IMG/VR virus record: IMGVR_UViG_3300045988_161152
DNA: 64,000 nucleotides
Reading direction: 5' to 3' (one strand)
DNA from: a virus
Taxonomy: Duplodnaviria > Heunggongvirae > Uroviricota > Caudoviricetes
Positions 46,105 through 57,009 of this stretch are shown in pieces. Numbering within the stretch: position 1 is the first letter of the stretch; each line of letters opens with the position of its first letter. The position numbers and the translations under genes are program-made. The notes under the pieces are model-generated. The model worked only from the letters and a program-made list of their open reading frames with translations. It had not been told where the DNA came from and made no database searches.

Positions 46105-46611
46105 TTGAGTATTTTCAATAAACACGCACACCAGGAACGTCCGTACATCGTCATAGTAGATATTGATGGGACGATATCAGAGGCAACGGAAGACAGGCTG
46201 CATTTACTTCCACCACCTGGCAAAGGTGCATTAACAGAGCACTGGAACGAGTTTAACCTTGCCTGTGACACTGATGCTCCCATCACTCCAGTTATTGATA
46301 TGGTGCGCCAGTTGTCCGGCATTTACACCCTCTGGTTTGTAACCGGGCGCTGTGAGATAGCCAGGGATAAAACACGAGCCTGGTTGCGTAAGCACGTAAC
46401 AAATGGGGCTGAGCCTTTGCTATCTATGCGTCCTGCCACCGATGACAGAAATGACGGTCCAGCAAAGATTGATCTCCTTAAGAAAATTGGTCTAAGTAAA
46501 ATTGCGTTCGCGCTGGAAGATAAGATTGAAGTGGCGCGTGTATTCAGGAGGCACGGCGTGCTTACGTTAATGGTCAGGGAGTATGAAAACGCGCTTCTCC
46601 ATCAACAATAA
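46105..46611 (+). CDS. HAD-superfamily phosphatase-like protein
   Basis: TTG start with GAGGAGG SD; HAD motif I VIVDIDGT. Confidence 0.5.
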   Translation: MSIFNKHAHQERPYIVIVDIDGTISEATEDRLHLLPPPGKGALTEHWNEFNLACDTDAPITPVIDMVRQLSGIYTLWFVTGRCEIARDKTRAWLRKHVTNGAEPLLSMRPATDDRNDGPAKIDLLKKIGLSKIAFALEDKIEVARVFRRHGVLTLMVREYENALLHQQ

Positions 46612-46627
46612 TTGCTCTAATAAATAT
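46611..46627 (+). promoter_or_regulatory. C1 operator-like site ATTGCTCTAATAAATAT
   Basis: 16/17 match; overlaps stop codon of preceding gene. Confidence 0.6.
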
Positions 46628-46705
46628 TGATTTTTAAAACAGAGAAAGTGAAAATAAAAACATGCCGCAAGGCGCGGCATGTATCCAATCACAGGAGCTG
46701 AAAAT

Positions 46706-46792
46706 ATGAACACGGCATTCAAAATCATTATGGCCGCGATCTATTTCTGGCTGTTCTCTATCACTTTTGGCGGCATCGTCGCACATGGGTAA
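46706..46792 (+). CDS. small hydrophobic peptide (28 aa), not in ORF track
   Basis: AGGAG SD 8 nt upstream of ATG; MNTAFKIIMAAIYFWLFSITFGGIVAHG; ends 9 nt before next gene. Confidence 0.35.
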   Translation: MNTAFKIIMAAIYFWLFSITFGGIVAHG

Positions 46793-46801
46793 GGGGGATG
46801 C

Positions 46802-47389
46802 ATGAAAGGCGAAGTGAAAGAGCGCGGCATGATTTTTAACGATGAGATGGTCCGGGCAATTCTTGGCGGGAATAAAACACAGACTCGCAGGATTGTTGAA
46901 GAAAAATTCTATGGACGGGCAGTGGCCGCAGAGTTGCTTGCCAAGCATTGTCCATATGGTCAACCGGGCGATCGTATTTGGGTTCGCGAAACCTACCGGG
47001 TACATGGCAAAGCGACGGACGTCGCAACGCTGGTTTATCGCGCAAGCGTGCGTAACTCCTGGACAGAACAAACGCACCGGGTTCCGGTCGAGGTTTGTAA
47101 TAAACCAGTATCAGAAAAGTGGACGCCATCAATTCACATGCCGCGCTGGGCATCGCGCATTCTTCTGGAAATTACCAACGTGCGCGTTGAGCGGTTGAAC
47201 GATATCAGCGAATGCGATGCAAGGGCTGAGGGCGCACCAACAGAATCGACCCTCATTGGCGATAAGCATTACCCAAGTTTCCGTAGCCTATGGAAATCAA
47301 TTTATGGCGAAGATAGTTGGAACGCTAATCCTTGGGTGTGGGTAATCGAGTTTAAGCGTATTCAGGGGGCAACCAGTGAGCAAAATTAA
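46802..47389 (+). CDS. ASCH-domain protein
   Basis: AILGGNKTQTRR (ASCH motif ILxGxKTxExR) and C-terminal WVWVIEFKRI. Confidence 0.5.
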   Translation: MKGEVKERGMIFNDEMVRAILGGNKTQTRRIVEEKFYGRAVAAELLAKHCPYGQPGDRIWVRETYRVHGKATDVATLVYRASVRNSWTEQTHRVPVEVCNKPVSEKWTPSIHMPRWASRILLEITNVRVERLNDISECDARAEGAPTESTLIGDKHYPSFRSLWKSIYGEDSWNANPWVWVIEFKRIQGATSEQN

Positions 47390-48080
47390 CTATCAAGAAC
47401 TGCGCGAGGCGGCGGAACAGGCAACGCAAGATGAATGGGTAGCATATATTTTGCCGGGTCATAACGGCATTTATCCTGCGCGCACGTCTGAGGGTAGGCA
47501 TTGCGGATACTTTATTGACTGGCCTGGCATTGATGGACAAAGGAATGCTGGTGCCAATGCCCGTTATATCGCGGCTATCCCACCAAAAGTTGCGCTGGCG
47601 CTACTGGATAAAATTAAGCACCTGGAGGACACAAATATTGATGCCACATGCCGTATTGCGGAGTTTGAGACTAATCTCGCGGCGCTGGTGGCAGAGAACG
47701 CCGGGCTGAAACACGCAATGGCCGTAACTCTTGAGCATGTGTCGGTCACGGATGCAGGGCAGGCTGGTGTTGCTGCAATGATTATCAACGATGCCCTATA
47801 CCACAGCGAAACTCCAGCTACCGATGCTTTTCTGGCTGAAATTCGTGCGGAAGCACGCAACGAGGGGATTAACTATACCGCCAGCCGTCTTGCTGCTGCG
47901 TTCAATCACGGATTTATCAATAAGTCTTTGCGTGAAGTTTTCGACGTTACACGCATGATTTTGTCAGCGAAAGAAGAGTTGGCTAATGAAGCGCATCCGA
48001 TTGATGGCCTGTCTGGTGAATATGCGGAGAAATCCCTTGAAGAATGGGCGGAACAGATTCGCAAAGGAAGCAGCCAGTGA
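47376..48080 (+). CDS. paralog family member 1 (MSKINYQELREAAEQA...)
   Basis: Shares N-terminus, ATDAFLAEIRAE and C-terminal EEWAEQIRKGSSQ motifs with 48364..49077 and 49375..50064. Confidence 0.45.
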   Translation: MSKINYQELREAAEQATQDEWVAYILPGHNGIYPARTSEGRHCGYFIDWPGIDGQRNAGANARYIAAIPPKVALALLDKIKHLEDTNIDATCRIAEFETNLAALVAENAGLKHAMAVTLEHVSVTDAGQAGVAAMIINDALYHSETPATDAFLAEIRAEARNEGINYTASRLAAAFNHGFINKSLREVFDVTRMILSAKEELANEAHPIDGLSGEYAEKSLEEWAEQIRKGSSQ

Positions 48081-48367
48081 ATATCGACACGACAATAACG
48101 ATCGATACGCTCCTAAATACCGGTCTGGCACTTCTCGGTTGGCTTTACATCATGTCCCGTACATGGCGATGGCTGGGTTCCATTTTCCTAAAACAGTGGA
48201 AAAAACGGCGCAAACAGGAACTACGCCAGAAGGCATTAGAAGCGTTCTATGACGCATTTGAGCTTAGCCGCATTGAACCAGGTACAACAGCCAGGATAGC
48301 GACAAAAGGCGACCTGATGATAGTGATGTTCCGACAGGAGAGAGCAGAGAAAGGGGAATCAGCATGA
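48077..48367 (+). CDS. small membrane protein interleaved between paralogs
   Basis: GTG start overlapping upstream stop (GTGA); TM segment LALLGWLYIMS. Confidence 0.35.
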   Translation: MNIDTTITIDTLLNTGLALLGWLYIMSRTWRWLGSIFLKQWKKRRKQELRQKALEAFYDAFELSRIEPGTTARIATKGDLMIVMFRQERAEKGESA

Positions 48368-49077
48368 AATTTTCCAAATTTTCTGAGTTGGTGAATCGTA
48401 TTTTGTCCAACAACCACAGCCATCGTCGCGATATGGATGTAACAATCGTTGTTCATTCGCCTGGCAGCATTGGTTCAACACCTTCAGTTGAGGTTCAGTC
48501 AATTCACGCTGGTTTTGATTGGGATTCCGGGAAAGTGCTGATTTTCCCATCACAGCCACTGACCACGCTAACACCAGAACAGATTACTGATATCACTGAT
48601 AGTGTGCGCAAAGGTCAGTCTTGGCACGCATATCAGGAATACAAGAAGCATCAAGAGCAGTTGGAAAAATTGTCGATTGAACTGGATGCCGCAAAACAGC
48701 GCATTGCAGAGCTGGATGGTAATCGCACGGCGCTGGCAGTGGAGAATGCCTCAATGAAGCTGTTTATCAGGGGCTGTTGCTACGTGTTTGATGGCCAGCA
48801 GGATGAAATATCTGATGCGTATATCTGCGCAACAGACGGAGGGATGCCGCAAATTCCAGCCACCGACGCTTTCCTGGCTGAAGTTCGGGCGCAGGGGGTG
48901 GATGCTGCTATAGAAGCTGCAAAAAATCTGGTGGCCCAAGAATATGAGTATAAGGATTTCAAAGCGGCGCAGAGTGATTGCTGTATGCACCCTGGTTCAG
49001 ACCGGGTAGGGAAGGTTGAAATGACTGAGTGGTTAGTTGACTTTGCTGCCCAGCTTCGCAAAGGAGGCAACCAGTGA
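48364..49077 (+). CDS. paralog family member 2
   Basis: IPATDAFLAEVRAQG and WLVDFAAQLRKGGNQ shared with members 1 and 3. Confidence 0.45.
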   Translation: MKFSKFSELVNRILSNNHSHRRDMDVTIVVHSPGSIGSTPSVEVQSIHAGFDWDSGKVLIFPSQPLTTLTPEQITDITDSVRKGQSWHAYQEYKKHQEQLEKLSIELDAAKQRIAELDGNRTALAVENASMKLFIRGCCYVFDGQQDEISDAYICATDGGMPQIPATDAFLAEVRAQGVDAAIEAAKNLVAQEYEYKDFKAAQSDCCMHPGSDRVGKVEMTEWLVDFAAQLRKGGNQ

Positions 49078-49373
49078 CTGTATGTCTTATTGATAAACGT
49101 CGACGTGGGCAACAAATACCATCTGTTGAAATGCCGAATCACACATGGTTTTGCGTACTTGATATCGATGGTATGGATACGTTGGTTGACACTCGTCATT
49201 ACTGCGATACCGCAACAGCTACTCCGGCGAAAGCAAAGAAAATGGCTGCTCTGATAGAAAACTGGACTCCACCTGATGGTTGGTGCAATGGGAATGATCG
49301 AGATTGGCACGAAAAAATGAAGGGCTATATCTGCGATTTTTTACGTAAATGCAACGGCTTCAGGGTGATGTGA
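49074..49373 (+). CDS. small Cys-containing protein interleaved between paralogs
   Basis: 99-aa ORF translationally coupled on both sides. Confidence 0.3.
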   Translation: MTVCLIDKRRRGQQIPSVEMPNHTWFCVLDIDGMDTLVDTRHYCDTATATPAKAKKMAALIENWTPPDGWCNGNDRDWHEKMKGYICDFLRKCNGFRVM

Positions 49374-49374
49374 T

Positions 49375-50064
49375 ATGACCAAAATTAACTATCAGGCACT
49401 GCGTGAGGCGGCAGAACGTGCAATTCCGGCAATGGAACGCCTGTTAATGTTGCCAGTTGATGATGATCTGATAAGCGAACAGGAACTTAAAGATTACGGT
49501 GTGGATATTGATGCGCTCAACGCCTTCAAATTTCTGGCCGGACCAGAAACCGTGCTGGCACTGCTGGATGAACTGGAAAGAAACCAGCAATACATCAAAC
49601 GCCGTGACCAGGAGAACGAGGAAATTGCGCTAACGGTAGGGAGGCTTCGCGTTGAGCTGGAAGGCAAAGACAGCAAAATAGCCAATCTTACCGCCGAACG
49701 CGATGCTCTTCGTGAAGGTGAGATGGGCGACGCTAGGCATAGCAACACACGGGCCGCAGCTGATATCTACTTCCAACTGGTCGAGGAGTGCGAAATTCCT
49801 GCTGGCGGATCTCTGGTCGAGTACGTTGACGATATGCGCGAGAAGCTGGAAGCCGCAGAGAAGCGCATTGCAGAGTTAGAAAGTGGTTCTCAGGCACAAA
49901 AGTTAGTTGAAGCAATCATTGTTGCGATAGAAAACGAACAGGAAAGGCTTTTTGATGAAGATTACCTAATGGATTCGAAAGAATGCATTGACGTAATTCG
50001 TGAAGAAGTAAAGCGATGGAATGATTCCCGTGCCGCTGGCATTCGCATCAACGGAGGTGAGTAG
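49375..50064 (+). CDS. paralog family member 3 (MTKINYQALREAAERA...)
   Basis: N-terminus near-identical to member 1. Confidence 0.45.
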   Translation: MTKINYQALREAAERAIPAMERLLMLPVDDDLISEQELKDYGVDIDALNAFKFLAGPETVLALLDELERNQQYIKRRDQENEEIALTVGRLRVELEGKDSKIANLTAERDALREGEMGDARHSNTRAAADIYFQLVEECEIPAGGSLVEYVDDMREKLEAAEKRIAELESGSQAQKLVEAIIVAIENEQERLFDEDYLMDSKECIDVIREEVKRWNDSRAAGIRINGGE

Positions 50065-50239
50065 TGCGTGTGGCATGTATCGGCTTGTTACCGTACCCGA
50101 CTCGTTTTTGGGCTTCTGCGCTAATTGCAAAGCCACATGTCCTGATGGCTGACAACATCATCCCGGCACCAAAGCGCCGCCATACCGGTATTGCAGCGGC
50201 ACGACGAGCAGCAAAGAGACGCAGGAGAGCAAAGCGATG
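50064..50239 (+). CDS. small basic protein (58 aa), copy 1 of tandem triplet; not in ORF track
   Basis: GTG start after GGAGG SD; ends AARRAAKRRRRAKR; stop overlaps next ATG (ATGA). Confidence 0.35.
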
Positions 50240-50412
50240 AAAAACCGTAAGGCAAAACGACTTTTTTTACAGCGTCCTGTGCGTGTGGTGGAGCTGGTTA
50301 TTAGCAACCATAAGATAGCGGTACTCCATCCATTTGGTCAGGTGGCTTTTGCCGCAAAGCGTAAGCCTACTGCGTCACAGAACAGGCGGAAGAAAGGGTA
50401 CGCTGTAAGATG
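50236..50412 (+). CDS. small basic protein (58 aa), copy 2; not in ORF track
   Basis: MKNRKAKRLFLQRPVRVVEL...KRKPTASQNRRKKGYAVR. Confidence 0.4.
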
Positions 50413-50598
50413 AAAAACCGTAAAGCAAAGATTCTGTTAGTTCGTAGAAACGCTCCTGGCGTCTGGCAGTGGGTGAGACTCAGCAACCGACGGATGGGGT
50501 TGATGAAATATTACGGGATGATGGATTGTGGTTTTTGCAAAAAGCCCAGCGCGGCGCAAAACCGCTGGAAAAACCACTTGCGCACTAAAGGAGAGTGA
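50410..50598 (+). CDS. small basic protein (62 aa), copy 3
   Basis: MKNRKAKILLVRR...CGFCKKPSAAQNRWKNHLRTKGE; shares MKNRKAK start and C-terminal motif with copy 2. Confidence 0.4.
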   Translation: MKNRKAKILLVRRNAPGVWQWVRLSNRRMGLMKYYGMMDCGFCKKPSAAQNRWKNHLRTKGE

Positions 50599-50599
50599 T

Positions 50600-51115
50600 A
50601 TGGCGTTAACACACCGCGAACTCTGTCAGATTGCGTACAAGTTCCTTAAGCGCAACGGGTTCAAGGTTTGTTTTCATGACCGCTTTATAGCTGTAACCAG
50701 TACCGGAGAACAGCCAGATGCTATGGGATTCAGAAATTCAGCATCATGCCTGATAGAGGCGAAATGTTCTCGTGCTGACTTGTTGGCAGATAGAAAAAAG
50801 CGTTTTCGTAAAAATCCGTCTCTTGGAATGGGCGACTGGCGATTCTTTATTAGTGAGCCGGGAATTATTTCAATTGAGGATTTACCACCTGGCTGGGGAT
50901 TACTTCACGTTGTTAACGGAAGAGTACGGAAAGTACATGGGTGGCCCAAGGGTAATTGCTGTTGGGGTAATCCTGACGATAAGCCATTTACTGGAAATAA
51001 GCAGGTTGAATGCGATTACATGTTATCTGCATTAAGGCGTATGGAGTTGAGAGGGCACCTTAATGAAATATATGACGGTGTAATTGTTAATAAGAAAGAA
51101 GGAAACGCGGCATGA
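50600..51115 (+). CDS. PD-(D/E)XK nuclease-fold-like protein
   Basis: ATG 50600; PDAMGF...CLIEAKCS resembles a D...E-x-K core; weak. Confidence 0.35.
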   Translation: MALTHRELCQIAYKFLKRNGFKVCFHDRFIAVTSTGEQPDAMGFRNSASCLIEAKCSRADLLADRKKRFRKNPSLGMGDWRFFISEPGIISIEDLPPGWGLLHVVNGRVRKVHGWPKGNCCWGNPDDKPFTGNKQVECDYMLSALRRMELRGHLNEIYDGVIVNKKEGNAA

Positions 51116-52122
51116 CCACTATTGCCAAAGATCGACTACTGACAATCAAGCAGTGGCGCGAAACATACGGACCGGGTAGCAACGTTGTACTGCCAGCAGA
51201 AGAAGCGGAAGAACTGGCACGAATTGCTCTGGCATCGCTGGAAGCAGAGCCTGTTCTGTATCAGTCCTGCACTCGCCCCACTTGGAATAGCGGTGTTCCG
51301 TGGACGGAATGGAAAGAACGAAGTCGTGAGTGCTACGAAGACGATTTGCGCTTTACAGACACGCCTGACCATGCCGGTTGGATATACAAATGTCGAAAAT
51401 TATATACCACTCCGCCAGCGCCGATAGCGTTAGAGGCCATCGAAAACGCAATTGAATACATCCGCAGTATCGCTTTTCACATCGATGACGACGATTACCA
51501 CGGCAAACATATTGCGTATTTCATGCGACAAGCATTGGCCTGGCTGGAAGGGCATTCATGCAGCGACGACAGACTGGGTAAGGCCGACAATCAACCCGCA
51601 TCTGGTAACCAGGCTGCCGAATCCAATCGCGGTAATGAGTGGACCGGCAATCCTGATATTGATAACGCCATCATCATGCTCGACCGCATAGATACGGCGG
51701 AAAGTTGCGATGATGACCGTATTGAGGCCGTTAAGGCTGTGTTGCGTAGACTGGCAGGCAACTATCCGGATATTCCGGATAGTTCGGTGCCAGCGCCAGG
51801 AAAGGGCGTCACCGGTGAACGTATCCGCATTAAGCCGCATGTTTATCGCGAACTGGTTAACCGTCTCCACGATACAGCGATCAAGTGTGCTGGCACCCAG
51901 CAATTACGAGAAAGAATTAGCCGTGTTTTGGGCGACGTTATTACGCCATATCATCATAAACAAGCCGAGAAAAGCGGTCTGGAAAGGTGTCATCTTGAGG
52001 CAGCATTAAACATTAAGCCGGGGCATACGCTTGGCATTATTGATGCACTGTTGGTTCATAAGATGGCCAGGGCTTTATTGTCGTTGGTGGACGCTGGTGA
52101 TACAAGCGAGGGTGAAGTATGA
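51112..52122 (+). CDS. protein of unknown function (336 aa)
   Basis: Translationally coupled ORF. Confidence 0.3.
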   Translation: MTTIAKDRLLTIKQWRETYGPGSNVVLPAEEAEELARIALASLEAEPVLYQSCTRPTWNSGVPWTEWKERSRECYEDDLRFTDTPDHAGWIYKCRKLYTTPPAPIALEAIENAIEYIRSIAFHIDDDDYHGKHIAYFMRQALAWLEGHSCSDDRLGKADNQPASGNQAAESNRGNEWTGNPDIDNAIIMLDRIDTAESCDDDRIEAVKAVLRRLAGNYPDIPDSSVPAPGKGVTGERIRIKPHVYRELVNRLHDTAIKCAGTQQLRERISRVLGDVITPYHHKQAEKSGLERCHLEAALNIKPGHTLGIIDALLVHKMARALLSLVDAGDTSEGEV

Positions 52123-52481
52123 GAGTTGCAGATCACATCAAACACCTTGAAAGAATTATCGAAAACGGTGAACTCTTAAGAGATCAGATGAGACGCACGG
52201 CAGAAGCCAGGGAGGCGATAATCCGCAGTCAGGCTGGTAAATTAAAGCAATTGTCAGAGATTAACACGCTATACAAGAACAGACGTAACCGGGCGGTGAT
52301 GCGGCTTCAGAAAGCACGTAATGAAATTAAATTGGTGGAGGCAAAACTGAAAAAACAGATCCAGCGTTACGATCAGCAAGATGCTTTTTATGCCGCCATC
52401 AAGGCGGCTGCTAATGAAATAGGCATCTGGAAGTTGCTGGTGGAGAAAGCAAAGACGAAGTTAAATGCCAACGAAAGCTGA
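52119..52481 (+). CDS. coiled-coil protein of unknown function (120 aa), last gene of early operon
   Basis: Heptad-rich, basic. Confidence 0.3.
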   Translation: MRVADHIKHLERIIENGELLRDQMRRTAEAREAIIRSQAGKLKQLSEINTLYKNRRNRAVMRLQKARNEIKLVEAKLKKQIQRYDQQDAFYAAIKAAANEIGIWKLLVEKAKTKLNANES

Positions 52482-52537
52482 ACTACAGGTGCCCACCAGC
52501 ACATACAGAAAATGATTGTTTCCACATCAAGGAGATT

Positions 52538-52560
52538 TTAATGTTTCACTGAAACATTAA
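52538..52560. other. perfect palindrome TTAATGTTTCA-C-TGAAACATTAA
   Basis: 11-bp arms; overlaps stop codon of the minus-strand small ORF. Confidence 0.6.
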
Positions 52561-52694
52561 GTAAGCCAGTGCATAATTCCATTTTTTACTGACCTTAAAA
52601 GCAAAATCAAAACGATGATGAGGATAATAGCCAGAATCTGGCTAATAATAGGCGCATCTAAAAATGCACTCAGGAACTGAAAAAAAGCGTTCAT
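52557..52694 (-). CDS. small hydrophobic peptide (45 aa), type I toxin-like or holin-like; not in ORF track
   Basis: ATG 52694 with AAGGA SD 9 nt upstream; MNAFFQFLSAFLDAPIISQILAIILIIVLILLLRSVKNGIMHWLT. Confidence 0.35.
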   Translation of the reverse strand: MNAFFQFLSAFLDAPIISQILAIILIIVLILLLRSVKNGIMHWLT

Positions 52695-53556
52695 TCAGGT
52701 GGTTCCTTGTCAAATGTAAAGGTGCACTTGCTCACGTTGACGTAGAAACCCAACCCCTATATAGTTGGATTCGGTGAATGAAAGTCGTTAACGTGAGCTT
52801 ACGGCACATGTTTTCGGAAAAACATCAGGGAACGGCTAATTCCTTGATGCGGGTGGGGTCTGTAATACAGACCCTATCTATTAACGTCATGATTGCATCT
52901 CAAATTTTCTCCTTATCTTCAATTAATCTACATTCATTTCATCTGTTAGCCACCACAATATGTAGAAAATGGCCCTCTTGCAAGTGCATAACTTTGTGGA
53001 TAACTCAGGAAGGAAAAAGTGGCTTTCGCGCACCTTCGGTCAGACAAGGTGTCCGGGAAAGTCAACGCAAAGAAAAAAATTGTTAAAAATAACGTTTGTT
53101 GGAATTGTATATTTTTATCCCCTTCAATGGTTAGCATTCCATTAACATCTTTTTTTAGAGACAGAAAAACATATCGTAACAACATATATACAGTATTAAG
53201 AGGCGAGTATTATCCTGCGGTGGGAATTCTGGGCGCTGTTAGATTCGACTTTCTCAGCAGGATTACATCGTCAACTTGCGACGTTGCCGTATGACTTTCG
53301 TGTAATAGGTGACAATGATGCGGCTAGTGAGTTACTTGTGAAGTTTTTCGGAAAAGGTTTTGTGGCCTCGGATCTTGATGAGCTACAGCAACATGAAGTG
53401 TCTAATTTGATTTTTAGCCATAGCCAATAAGCCTCCCTCCTCCATCAAGGCCACAATTTGTGACCTTAAACAATTTGTTTTCTGCTTTTTCTTATTTGAG
53501 AAAATAACGTTGTTGACAGCTAATAGGCTCGTTGTTGTTATACATGCCTGTATAGA

Positions 53557-53913
53557 TTATGACCGTAAATTATTAGCGGATTTTAAGCCATATTCACCGT
53601 TGTAGAAATTACTCATGTTCCATTCATTAGGAAGTTCTTTTCTGTCCAATGTATAGTGGCGCACGATATAACGATCTTCATCTTCTTCGATGGACAGGCG
53701 GACATAGCCAATGTGGATCACCGATACGGGCGGTGTTCGTATTGCATAGATGTCGCGGAGATATACCGGTAGCTCGACAAATGCATCAGGTGCATCTGTG
53801 ATGCTCGTTTTTTCACAGTATTCATATAACGCATCGTTGATATCGTTAAGAGATTCATGATCGTATATTTCCAGGTAATTACCGCGATCGCGATGGTACT
53901 CGATTTTAGCCAT
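53557..53913 (-). CDS. protein of unknown function (118 aa)
   Basis: Second gene of minus-strand pair divergent from humD. Confidence 0.35.
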   Translation of the reverse strand: MAKIEYHRDRGNYLEIYDHESLNDINDALYEYCEKTSITDAPDAFVELPVYLRDIYAIRTPPVSVIHIGYVRLSIEEDEDRYIVRHYTLDRKELPNEWNMSNFYNGEYGLKSANNLRS

Positions 53914-54498
53914 TCAAAATCCCCTGTTATCGTTTTGCATTTCTCTAATCCGGTTCAGAACTACTTCATGCTGGGCTTGGATAGCGGCTTTTTCGTTTTC
54001 AAGTCGGGCAATAGACATCTCTAATTCTTTGCTGTACCAGGCGAGTTGGGCCAGGTTCATCCGGTTGTGGTCGAGAGTTGGAGACACTTCGACGCGCTCC
54101 CTTTCTTCCTGCTTTAATGAGAAGAGATTCATCTCATCCCTAGAGGAAAATTCAGCAACAATTTCTTGTTGATGATCCGGTCGCTGCGGCATCCTCGCCA
54201 GTATAAATGGCGGTTCTTTTGAAAACATGAATGTCGGTTCAGAACGTGTTTTCACCCATCTAGCCTGCTGTCTTTCGGCAAGTTCACAGGCTTCATCATA
54301 GTTATTTGCCAAACCAAGCACGGATGGGCGGTCCCACGCGCCACCATTCAGACAATAAACAACAATTTTCCCGTCATGTTCTGTAACCCCATAGGGATGG
54401 TCCCACCAGGCGTCCAGCTGAGCTTTAGAGCGTTTCTCGTTAGGAGTGCAGTCAAAATTTTTGGGCAATACAGGATCGAGAGGAATGCGATTAGGCAT
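53914..54498 (-). CDS. protein of unknown function (194 aa), candidate LexA-regulated gene (P1 lxr region)
   Basis: Starts 138 bp from the LexA box shared with humD. Confidence 0.35.
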   Translation of the reverse strand: MPNRIPLDPVLPKNFDCTPNEKRSKAQLDAWWDHPYGVTEHDGKIVVYCLNGGAWDRPSVLGLANNYDEACELAERQQARWVKTRSEPTFMFSKEPPFILARMPQRPDHQQEIVAEFSSRDEMNLFSLKQEERERVEVSPTLDHNRMNLAQLAWYSKELEMSIARLENEKAAIQAQHEVVLNRIREMQNDNRGF

Positions 54499-56992: not shown

Positions 56993-57009
56993 ATTGCTCT
57001 AATGTATTG
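56993..57009 (+). promoter_or_regulatory. C1 operator-like site upstream of lpa
   Basis: attgctctaatgtattg; first 11 nt match consensus. Confidence 0.4.

Follow-up and report, generated by a model that had tools for sequence, protein, structure and literature searches.

The three genes at the distal end of the early operon of a P1/P7-like phage-plasmid are best explained as reshuffled early-operon cassettes, the first of which (gene 1) would encode an MmcB-like repair-type nuclease aiding phage replication and recombination; we put the probability of this reading at about 0.6. The genes lie at positions 50,600 to 52,481 of a 64,000-nucleotide stretch of viral DNA (IMG/VR record IMGVR_UViG_3300045988_161152), referred to here as the window, which is a P1/P7-like phage-plasmid. 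Gene 1 belongs to a widespread and so far unannotated phage branch of a known nuclease family, gene 2 is a mosaic of exchangeable modules, and gene 3 is a variant of the named P1 protein PmgV.

Genomic setting and operon organization

Genes 1-3 are the final genes of a C1-repressed early operon that starts at an Op88-type operator after pap. The features of the locus are as follows:

46611..46627, + strand: C1 repressor operator, the equivalent of P1 Op88/OpmgT; 17-mer ATTGCTCTAATAAATAT, with one mismatch to the consensus, just past the pap stop codon
50410..50598, + strand: small basic ORF of 62 aa (MKNRKAK...), stopping 1 nt short of gene 1 and often accompanying it; phrog_1380 and phrog_9263
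50600..51115, + strand: gene 1, 171 codons plus stop (171 aa); predicted PD-(D/E)XK nuclease-fold protein of the phage MmcB-like branch, corresponding to P7 Upf89.0
51112..52122, + strand: gene 2, 336 aa
52119..52481, + strand: gene 3, 120 aa; corresponds to P1 PmgV and P7 Upf90.8; basic, with a coiled-coil pattern; P1 lineage only
52482..53800, no strand: AT-rich stretch following the operon, common to P1 up to 53102 and to P7 up to 53302

P1 and P7 have annotated operators at the equivalent position. No second C1 operator was found between this site and position 56993, and no promoter-like site was seen on the + strand within 46.6-52.5 kb. Within 50-55 kb, Rfam yielded no RNA family, the sole match (BsrG, E 0.94) being noise. 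GC content drops from 0.45-0.52 to 0.37-0.41 at approximately 52.4-53.8 kb, and together with the operator this bears out a preliminary description of the DNA, made from the sequence alone, that had placed the three genes at the end of the early operon before an AT-rich island.

The gene 1 ATG is preceded 8 nt upstream by an AAGGAG Shine-Dalgarno sequence, and the gene 1/gene 2 and gene 2/gene 3 junctions are both 4-nt ATGA overlaps (GCATGACC and GTATGAGA, respectively), as expected from the earlier proposal of three coupled ORFs, the coordinates of which were also correct. Translational coupling of genes 1-3 would also fit a functional complex. The sizes first reported for gene 2 (336 aa) and gene 3 (120 aa) stand, and that of gene 1 is corrected from 172 to 171 aa. 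All three ORFs are real genes and not chance ORFs, because gene 1 has 3,215 relatives (clusters at the 50%-identity level), the exact gene 2 protein is present on 307 contigs, and a homologue only 63% identical to gene 3 has the same 120-aa length.

An array of lambdoid ea/nin-type cassettes makes up the operon body (approximately 46.9-51.75 kb), with Ead/Ea22-like proteins, DUF4752, DUF7739 and small basic ORFs among them; upstream of the trio, Ead_Ea22 is found twice, along with DUF4752 and DUF7739. The 62-aa ORF immediately before gene 1 and the ORF at 50237-50413 are paralogues, and phrog_9263 spans both the 62-aa ORF and gene 1. A toxin-antitoxin reading, in which this small upstream ORF is paired with gene 1, was rejected, the two being adjacent in only 39 of 80 viral contigs that carry gene 1 copies at least 99% identical to this one.

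Gene 1 is a putative MmcB-like nuclease

The possible nuclease motif of gene 1 comprises PDAMGF (residues 39-44) and CLIEAKCS (residues 50-57), and lies within a signature, G-E37-x-P-D40 ... E53-x-K55, whose residues E37, D40, E53 and K55 are invariant among 38 close homologues. In a wider set of 58 homologues (33-59% identical to gene 1), D40 is again invariant and E37, E53 and K55 are each conserved in at least 90%. The catalytic signature of the PD-(D/E)XK superfamily – an acidic residue, (P)D, and (D/E)xK – is present in gene 1, and an AlphaFold model (pLDDT 85) predicts a restriction-endonuclease-like alpha/beta core fold.

A family profile built from the 58 sequences matches 3dnx with an E value of 3e-4; this wider profile is needed for the match, and the 38 close homologues reach 3dnx only at E 0.5. 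The 3dnx fragment is itself MmcB-like (PF06319, E 2e-31), and hhalign comparison of the gene 1 family with the MmcB-like family gave 97.8% (E 1e-12), with the motif ECKxSRxDFxxD in common. BFVD matches of gene 1 include proteins annotated as MmcB-like, and the homology to a bona fide MmcB-like member takes in the active-site motif of the family. These comparisons place gene 1 in a large branch of the MmcB-like PD-(D/E)XK nucleases that is found in phages and prophages and has so far gone unannotated. The preliminary description had suggested a D...E-x-K core and a nuclease-like fold, and had regarded the assignment as weak; the core and fold are supported. The remote homology searches and structure prediction that it had recommended find a nuclease fold for gene 1, of MmcB-like type.

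Several searches gave no match. A single-sequence PDB search with gene 1 returned only noise, PF06319 matched neither gene 1 nor any of the 38 homologues even at E up to 10, nor ten more distant relatives at E up to 0.01, and direct scans with curated models (Pfam, NCBIfam and PADLOC) found no significant match for gene 1, gene 2 or gene 3. Gene 1 therefore differs from the MmcB-like proteins (PF06319; e.g. 3dnx, which is SPO1766, and Caulobacter crescentus MmcB) in falling short of the PF06319 threshold, and also in two features of its own, a conserved insert (GMGDWRF) and a C-terminal segment (KPFxxNKQxE...RR). The setting differs too, in that gene 1 is no chromosomal SOS gene but is borne by phages and prophages and is under a phage repressor. 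In Caulobacter, MmcB has been described as a PD-(D/E)XK endonuclease that is induced in the SOS response and gives protection from mitomycin C (PMC9578287).

Gene 1 would be a metal-dependent DNA endonuclease that is produced soon after induction or infection and has damaged or branched DNA as its substrate, for example blocked forks, crosslinks, or intermediates of recombination. This substrate and role are proposed because of the distant homology and the gene neighbourhood.

Distribution and neighbours of gene 1

The gene 1 family is, by the matches found, common in enterobacterial prophages. The version present here is found in 931 of 5,426 complete E. coli genomes (17%), including Stx-converting prophages, and also in P1-like phage-plasmids carrying resistance genes; its RefSeq label is "hypothetical protein". 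Prophages of Providencia, Lonsdalea, Morganella and Klebsiella carry a gene 1 homologue between the replication genes and Q, adjoining NinB and NinG or RusA in the nin region, and in E. coli O157 the genes upstream of gene 1 are gam-bet-exo and an Ead/Ea22 gene. Since accessory genes of all kinds collect in the nin and exo-xis regions, the adjacency of gene 1 to recombination genes is weak evidence of function.

A bona fide resolvase gene (RusA or NinG) directly adjoins the gene 1 homologue in four of five prophage contexts, and in two of them the homologue runs 8 nt into the start of that gene. These contexts bear on the idea that gene 1 itself resolves Holliday junctions or branches in the manner of Hjc, RusA or Rap, clearing branched DNA before packaging. 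Archaeal Hjc and other small PD-(D/E)XK resolvases do resemble gene 1 in fold class, size and placement of catalytic residues, but the likeness is much weaker than that to the MmcB-like proteins and all of the sequence matches are sub-threshold: the best, among the 16 of 38 gene 1 family members that match the Hjc family PF01870, has an E value of 0.018, and more distant relatives score 16.9-17.4 bits against a gathering threshold of 21.1 bits. Moreover, because RusA or NinG is adjacent in four of five contexts, gene 1 would not be a substitute for a resolvase, and homologues of gene 1 co-occur with these proteins and do not replace them. We therefore regard a resolvase role as unlikely; as an MmcB-like nuclease, gene 1 would serve phage replication and recombination beside the NinG and RusA junction resolvases.

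Lar-type restriction-alleviation genes lie near the gene 1 homologue in the Providencia and Morganella prophages, and Dam is also near in Providencia. A restriction-modification reading of gene 1 was rejected, Dam being near a homologue in one context only. The same neighbours, together with early expression from a repressor-controlled operon and the accessory, patchy distribution of gene 1, could fit an offensive or anti-defence nuclease that attacks host or competitor DNA, or a nucleic-acid signal of a defence system, early in infection. Nothing favours this specifically, however: a repair protein is the nearest relative to have been characterised, conservation across the family is strong and includes an extended motif also present in cellular MmcB, and the neighbours vary. 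We consider such a role quite improbable compared with the repair-type function.

Mosaic structure of gene 2

The preliminary description took gene 2 for an unknown of no recognisable family. This does not hold: its C-terminus is the named P1 protein PmgU, and its N-terminal two thirds are common to lambdoid DUF551 proteins. The modules are arranged as follows:

51112..51261, + strand: module 1, a leader of approximately 50 aa ending ...ALASLEAEPV; the part of gene 2 most often kept with gene 1
51262..51752, + strand: modules 2-3 (aa 51-214), of which the first part is a variable insert and the rest a conserved central region; common to lambdoid proteins ending in DUF551
51753..52122, + strand: C-terminal module, corresponding to P1 PmgU (93% identical); the block common to P1 and P7 starts at 51753

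Residues 1-226 are 94-97% identical to lambdoid DUF551 proteins of 285-292 aa, in which DUF551 sits at the C-terminus at the place of the PmgU module in gene 2, while residues 226-336, the last 111 aa, are 93% identical to PmgU. The leader is 92% identical to the N-terminus of P7 Upf89.5 (432 aa), and the final 122 aa are identical to its end; the middle of the P7 protein differs from gene 2 aa 51-214. Relatives have alternative inserts at aa 51-100, breakpoints fall at approximately aa 50, 100, 214-226 and 326, and similarity to Stx and other lambdoid phages ends at approximately 51254-51261.

This arrangement recalls the Ea22-type and DUF551 early proteins of the lambdoid exo-xis region, which like gene 2 are encoded in early operons and are built from a leader, a middle and an exchangeable C-terminal domain, a design described for Ea22 variants (PMC10834534). 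Gene 2 differs in having the P1-specific PmgU module as its C-terminal domain and in lacking a match to Pfam Ead_Ea22 or DUF551; neither Ead/Ea22-like PF13935 nor DUF551 PF04448 was matched at E up to 1, with only a spurious hit to NAPRTase_N. A PDB sequence search with gene 2 found nothing, and a structure prediction from 29 mosaic homologues had a pLDDT of 48.5, too low for use of the fold. Gene 2 may be a non-enzymatic, mostly helical modular protein of Ea22-like build, in which the DUF551 domain has been swapped for a PmgU module; it is called non-enzymatic solely because no matches were found. Its in-frame linker junctions provide a clear example of module shuffling between lambdoid phages and phage-plasmids.

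Gene 3 is PmgV

Gene 3, too, had been described as belonging to no recognisable family, and is instead the named P1 protein PmgV, from which it differs at 4 of 120 residues. It is basic (27 K+R versus 15 D+E) and contains no proline, and one heptad register places hydrophobic residues at 68% of a/d positions, which fits the coiled coil that had been predicted for it. A PDB sequence search with gene 3 found nothing. It is a basic, predicted coiled-coil protein specific to the P1 lineage.

Independent assortment of genes and modules

Gene 1 is a lambdoid cassette, and the C-terminus of gene 2 together with gene 3 is of the P1 lineage. The P7 gene upf89.0 shares 98% nucleotide identity with gene 1, which is absent from P1, and P1 also lacks gene 2 aa 1-214. 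Positions 51753-53102 of the window are collinear with P1 85188-86535, and, as in P1, the PmgU part of gene 2 and PmgV close the Op88 operon and precede the upfM region. The breakpoint common to P1 and P7 (nt 51753) therefore falls inside gene 2.

The preliminary description had treated the three genes as a unit. Counted in aggregate, plasmid records with pap number 655, those with gene 1 297, and those with PmgU plus PmgV 198, and the trio is present in only 15 of 552 matching records. Among the 80 viral contigs with near-identical gene 1, the leader module of gene 2 is found in 52 and PmgV in only nine. With gene 2 itself cut by a breakpoint, a three-gene unit is not supported, and genes and sub-gene modules assort independently. 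The cassettes have been reshuffled by recombination, in part at the conserved in-frame linkers ...LEAEPV and ...AGNYPxIPD, and genes 1-3 are therefore co-transcribed and translationally coupled neighbours and not an evolutionarily linked system.

A unit of this kind could have been a single accessory defence, exclusion or toxin system with gene 1 as effector nuclease and genes 2 and 3 as sensor or regulator, as the tight ATGA coupling, the location in a variable phage-plasmid region beside AT-rich DNA, and the frequency of PD-(D/E)XK nucleases among defence effectors (e.g. the Can2 and restriction enzyme matches) might suggest. We consider this very unlikely. Besides the poor co-occurrence and the breakpoints within gene 2, PADLOC-DB 2.0 has no match to any of the three proteins at E up to 1, C1 silences the operon in the lysogen – the wrong state in which to protect it – and the prophage copies of gene 1 have quite different surroundings, among nin or Red genes. 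Reshuffled cassettes remain the preferred explanation.

Discussion

The P1 and P7 counterparts of these genes (PmgU and PmgV; Upf89.0, Upf89.5 and Upf90.8) are annotated as unknown or 'putative morphogenetic'. Beyond this historical annotation of pmgT, pmgU and pmgV, from which the 'pmg' names derive, nothing favours a morphogenetic role, and we regard it as scarcely credible: P1 plating is unaffected by CRISPRi knock-down of the three pmg genes, which are non-essential in that screen (PMC10695390), many P1-like elements lack the genes or have others in their place, C1 controls the operon, which is an early one not driven from a late promoter, and gene 1 has a predicted nuclease fold. The 'putative morphogenetic' names are thus misleading, and the P1 annotation is clarified accordingly.

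The pmgT-humD stretch has been recognized as variable region 8 of P1-like elements (PMC9603915). The presence/absence comparison that had been proposed shows that the genes are not universally conserved in P1 relatives; the suggestion that they are accessory cargo agrees with the variable location, the absence or replacement in many relatives, and the dispensability of pmgT, pmgU and pmgV. None of genes 1-3 would be needed for P1-type lytic growth, and P1 pmgT and pmgU seem to be what is left of a longer cassette operon, which survives in P7-type elements.

What is new about gene 1 is its place as an unannotated relative of the already known MmcB family; P7 Upf89.0, PmgU and PmgV had been named earlier. 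A gene labelled as a hypothetical protein is thereby given a fold and a family, together with the testable prediction that its product may be a metal-dependent, structure-specific or damage-specific endonuclease. More speculatively, and with a low probability, the whole branch of 3,215 clusters could represent a dedicated early phage function for dealing with blocked or crosslinked forks or for anti-defence. In P1 the Op88 operon is followed by hot, lxr and humD, although hot is absent from this window. If the branch does have such a function, the terminal genes of the P1 Op88 operon and then hot, lxr and humD would form a phage-borne toolkit for DNA-damage tolerance and not a random assortment of cargo.

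Operon structure

The window is a P1/P7-like phage-plasmid, and the segment from 46600 to 52700 is 100% identical to E. coli plasmid NZ_CP058881. All three + strand open reading frames of the preliminary description were found where it had placed them, although the first encodes 171 aa, not 172. They and the nearest upstream binding site for C1, the P1-type repressor, are as follows:

46611-46627, C1 operator, 17 bp with one mismatch, directly 3′ of the stop codon of pap (the gene immediately upstream of the operator)
50600-51115, + strand, gene 1, 171 aa, with an AAGGAG ribosome-binding site upstream
51112-52122, + strand, gene 2, 336 aa
52119-52481, + strand, gene 3, 120 aa

Both gene junctions are ATGA stop/start overlaps, and between about 52.4 and 53.8 kb GC content is lower, at 0.37-0.41. 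The next operator-like site after 46611-46627 is at 56993, and a scan of 46.6-52.5 kb revealed neither a + strand promoter-like site nor a convincing terminator; the three genes therefore close an early operon, as first suggested, which is C1-repressed and controlled by this operator. The other operon products are of lambdoid early-region type: two Ead/Ea22-like proteins, DUF4752, DUF7739, and small basic ORFs.

The window as a whole contains 15 matches to the 17-bp C1 operator consensus (≤3 mismatches; 0.18 expected by chance), including one at 30787-30803 without any mismatch, which overlaps an inverted partner at 30798-30814. Two adjacent small basic + strand ORFs (50237-50413 and 50410-50598; 58 and 62 aa; phrog_1380) look like tandem paralogues, since both begin MKNRKAK and share an ...AxQNR... 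motif; phrog_9263 models the two as one fused protein. The second stops 1 nt short of gene 1 and accompanies it in 39 of 80 viral contigs.

Gene 1 and the MmcB-like nucleases

Gene 1 matches no Pfam, NCBIfam or PADLOC model, and its PHROG families are of unknown function. The family is large, with 324 clusters at 90% identity in a word-indexed search and 3,215 representatives at 50% identity in an exhaustive profile search. The residues originally flagged as a possible nuclease core are its conserved center: G-E37-x-P-D40 and E53-x-K55 are invariant in 38 homologues, and across 58 homologues sharing 33-59% identity with gene 1, D40 never varies, with conservation of 90% or more at E37, E53 and K55.

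Profile and structural evidence agree on a nuclease fold. The AlphaFold model is confident (pLDDT 85, pTM 0.79), and the wider family profile retrieves 3dnx by sequence (E 3e-4), the aligned fragment of which is MmcB-like (Pfam PF06319, E 2e-31). An hhalign comparison returns a probability of 97.8% (E 1e-12; identity 35% across 82 columns), with a common ECKxSRxDFxxD motif that reaches beyond the generic nuclease signature, and Foldseek matches among viral models include proteins annotated as MmcB-like. What began as a weak nuclease call is thus a well-supported fold and superfamily assignment, with conserved catalytic residues and homology to MmcB-like proteins. Gene 1 lies outside formal PF06319 membership, and is a separate phage branch of MmcB-like PD-(D/E)XK nuclease homologues. 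Caulobacter MmcB has been described as a PD-(D/E)XK endonuclease that is SOS-induced and gives protection from mitomycin C and cisplatin, with a proposed role in crosslink repair together with translesion polymerases (PMC9578287).

Genomic neighborhoods of gene 1

Near-identical copies of gene 1 are present in 931 of 5,426 complete E. coli genomes, at 1,050 chromosomal and 250 plasmid places, and every copy among the matches listed carries a 'hypothetical' annotation. In E. coli O157:H7 the gene belongs to the leftward early operon, in the order cIII, kil, gam, bet, exo, small exo-xis ORFs, Ead/Ea22, gene 1, DUF551, xis, int. Prophages of Providencia, Lonsdalea, Morganella and Klebsiella carry a homologue in the nin region, with the replication genes on one side and the Q antiterminator on the other; it adjoins NinB and is directly upstream of RusA or NinG, with an 8-nt overlap with the resolvase gene start in two contexts; in Klebsiella it is also near DUF551, Ead/Ea22 and DNA polymerase III theta genes. 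These placements fit a role in DNA metabolism, and lend it weak support because nin and early regions also gather unrelated accessory genes. A junction resolvase is an unlikely reading of gene 1, as the co-occurrence of RusA or NinG argues against its being the phage's own.

In the nin regions of two Klebsiella prophage loci, a theta (Hot-like) gene is a few genes downstream of the gene 1 homologue; the P1 pmgT-to-hot region resembles a transplanted lambdoid nin/ea segment, as the gene content of these loci mirrors that stretch.

Mosaicism of the three genes

Gene 1 corresponds to P7 upf89.0 (98% nucleotide identity). Gene 2 resembles P7 Upf89.5 at its two ends alone (gene 2 aa 1-50, 92%; aa 215-336, 100% identical), P1 PmgU is the last 111 aa of gene 2 (93% identical), and gene 3 is P7 Upf90.8 and P1 PmgV, differing from the latter at 4 of 120 residues. 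Gene 2 is itself a patchwork of modules:

aa 1-50, leader, ending ...ALASLEAEPV
aa 51-100, insert, with several alternative versions
aa 101-226, conserved middle, followed in lambdoid prophages by a DUF551 domain
aa 227-326, PmgU module
C-terminal tail, two alternatives; in the window, P1 and P7 it is the DAGDTSEGEV version, overlapping the start of PmgV

This design parallels that of Ea22 variants, which have a common N-terminal part and exchangeable C-terminal domains, DUF551 among them (PMC10834534). The structure model of gene 2 is unreliable (pLDDT 48.5), mostly helices with low-confidence linkers between, and no solved relative was found. Gene 3 is basic, proline-free and heptad-patterned, with sub-threshold matches of coiled-coil type. 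With low confidence, gene 2 could be a modular adaptor and gene 3 an oligomeric coiled-coil partner.

The proposal that the genes constitute one unit does not stand. P1 and P7 become collinear with the window again at one and the same nucleotide, 51753, which lies inside gene 2 at its AGNYPDIPD linker, and similarity to Stx and other lambdoid phages is limited to 50400 or 50542 through ~51260 – the small upstream ORF, gene 1 and the gene 2 leader. In aggregate PLSDB counts, uncorrected for phylogeny, pap has a match in 655 records, gene 1 in 297, and the PmgU module with PmgV (≥80% covered) in 198; the whole trio has any match in 552 records and is ≥80% covered in one place in 15, and the whole operon reaches that coverage in 9 of 1,316. 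Of the 80 viral contigs whose gene 1 copy reaches 99% identity or more, 52 retain the gene 2 leader, nine carry PmgV, and the complete arrangement of the window occurs in none. PmgV forms only 15 clusters in 5.8 billion proteins, all on P1-size contigs. From these breakpoints, counts and clusters, gene 1 is a lambdoid cassette and the PmgU module and PmgV are of P1 lineage; genes and modules are inherited independently, as a mosaic, and their adjacency in the window is one recombinant outcome among many. That the trio is a three-component defense system is very improbable.

Accessory status and the P1 pmg genes

The accessory character originally proposed is borne out. Gene 1 and aa 1-214 of gene 2 are missing from reference P1, and the trio is clearly not a universal set of structural genes among P1 relatives. 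The locus falls inside pmgT-humD, which is among the eight highly variable regions published for P1-like phage-plasmids and where replacement of pmgT left JL22 lysogeny unaffected (PMC9603915); pmgT, pmgU and pmgV are dispensable in P1, being non-essential in a genome-wide CRISPRi screen (PMC10695390).

In its N-terminal part P1 PmgT resembles the product of the gene that opens the window operon (46802-47389), whereas the 50-odd residues at its C-terminus are gene 2 DNA read out of frame and match window ORF 51710-52009 (positions 4301-5370 of the P1 locus compared with window 46802-47389 and 51710-52122). Judged from sequence, PmgT looks like a fusion ORF and PmgU appears to be a leftover C-terminal piece of a gene 2-type protein. 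We infer that the P1 locus is what a deletion or recombination event left of a longer P7-type operon, the direction of that event being unproven.

DNA downstream of gene 3

A perfect 9-bp inverted repeat (AATGTTTCA-C-TGAAACATT, 52541-52559), passed over by the terminator scan because it has no T-run, lies 60 nt beyond the end of gene 3 and directly adjoins the stop codon of a strongly hydrophobic 45-aa ORF on the - strand (52557-52694, MNAFFQFLSAFLDAPIISQILAIILIIVLILLLRSVKNGIMHWLT), the ATG of which is preceded by an AGGA motif. This ORF is intact in P7 (100% identical) and P1 (two substitutions), where only + strand upf ORFs are annotated; it has no PHROG or Rfam match, and could be a small membrane peptide or type I toxin-like gene. 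At 53294-53302, the exact point of the IS903 insertion in P7, the window carries the empty site; in window coordinates the P7 blocks on either side share 9 bp, which is what a 9-bp target duplication would leave. Collinearity with P1 is broken at 53102-53931. Here the window has P7-type - strand genes of 118 aa (53557-53913, phrog_5797) and 194 aa (53914-54498, phrog_6164), and P1 carries upfO, hot and part of lxr; that stretch of the window showed no hot homologue.

Proposed role of gene 1

We tentatively propose, with a probability of roughly 0.45, that the gene 1 product is an active metal-dependent DNA endonuclease, made early, that would act on damaged or branched DNA and so support phage replication and recombination. 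An anti-defense role for gene 1 is doubtful, slightly more so than the resolvase reading. The analysis assigns a very common prophage gene, labelled 'hypothetical', to a family and corrects the reading of P1 pmgT, pmgU and pmgV.
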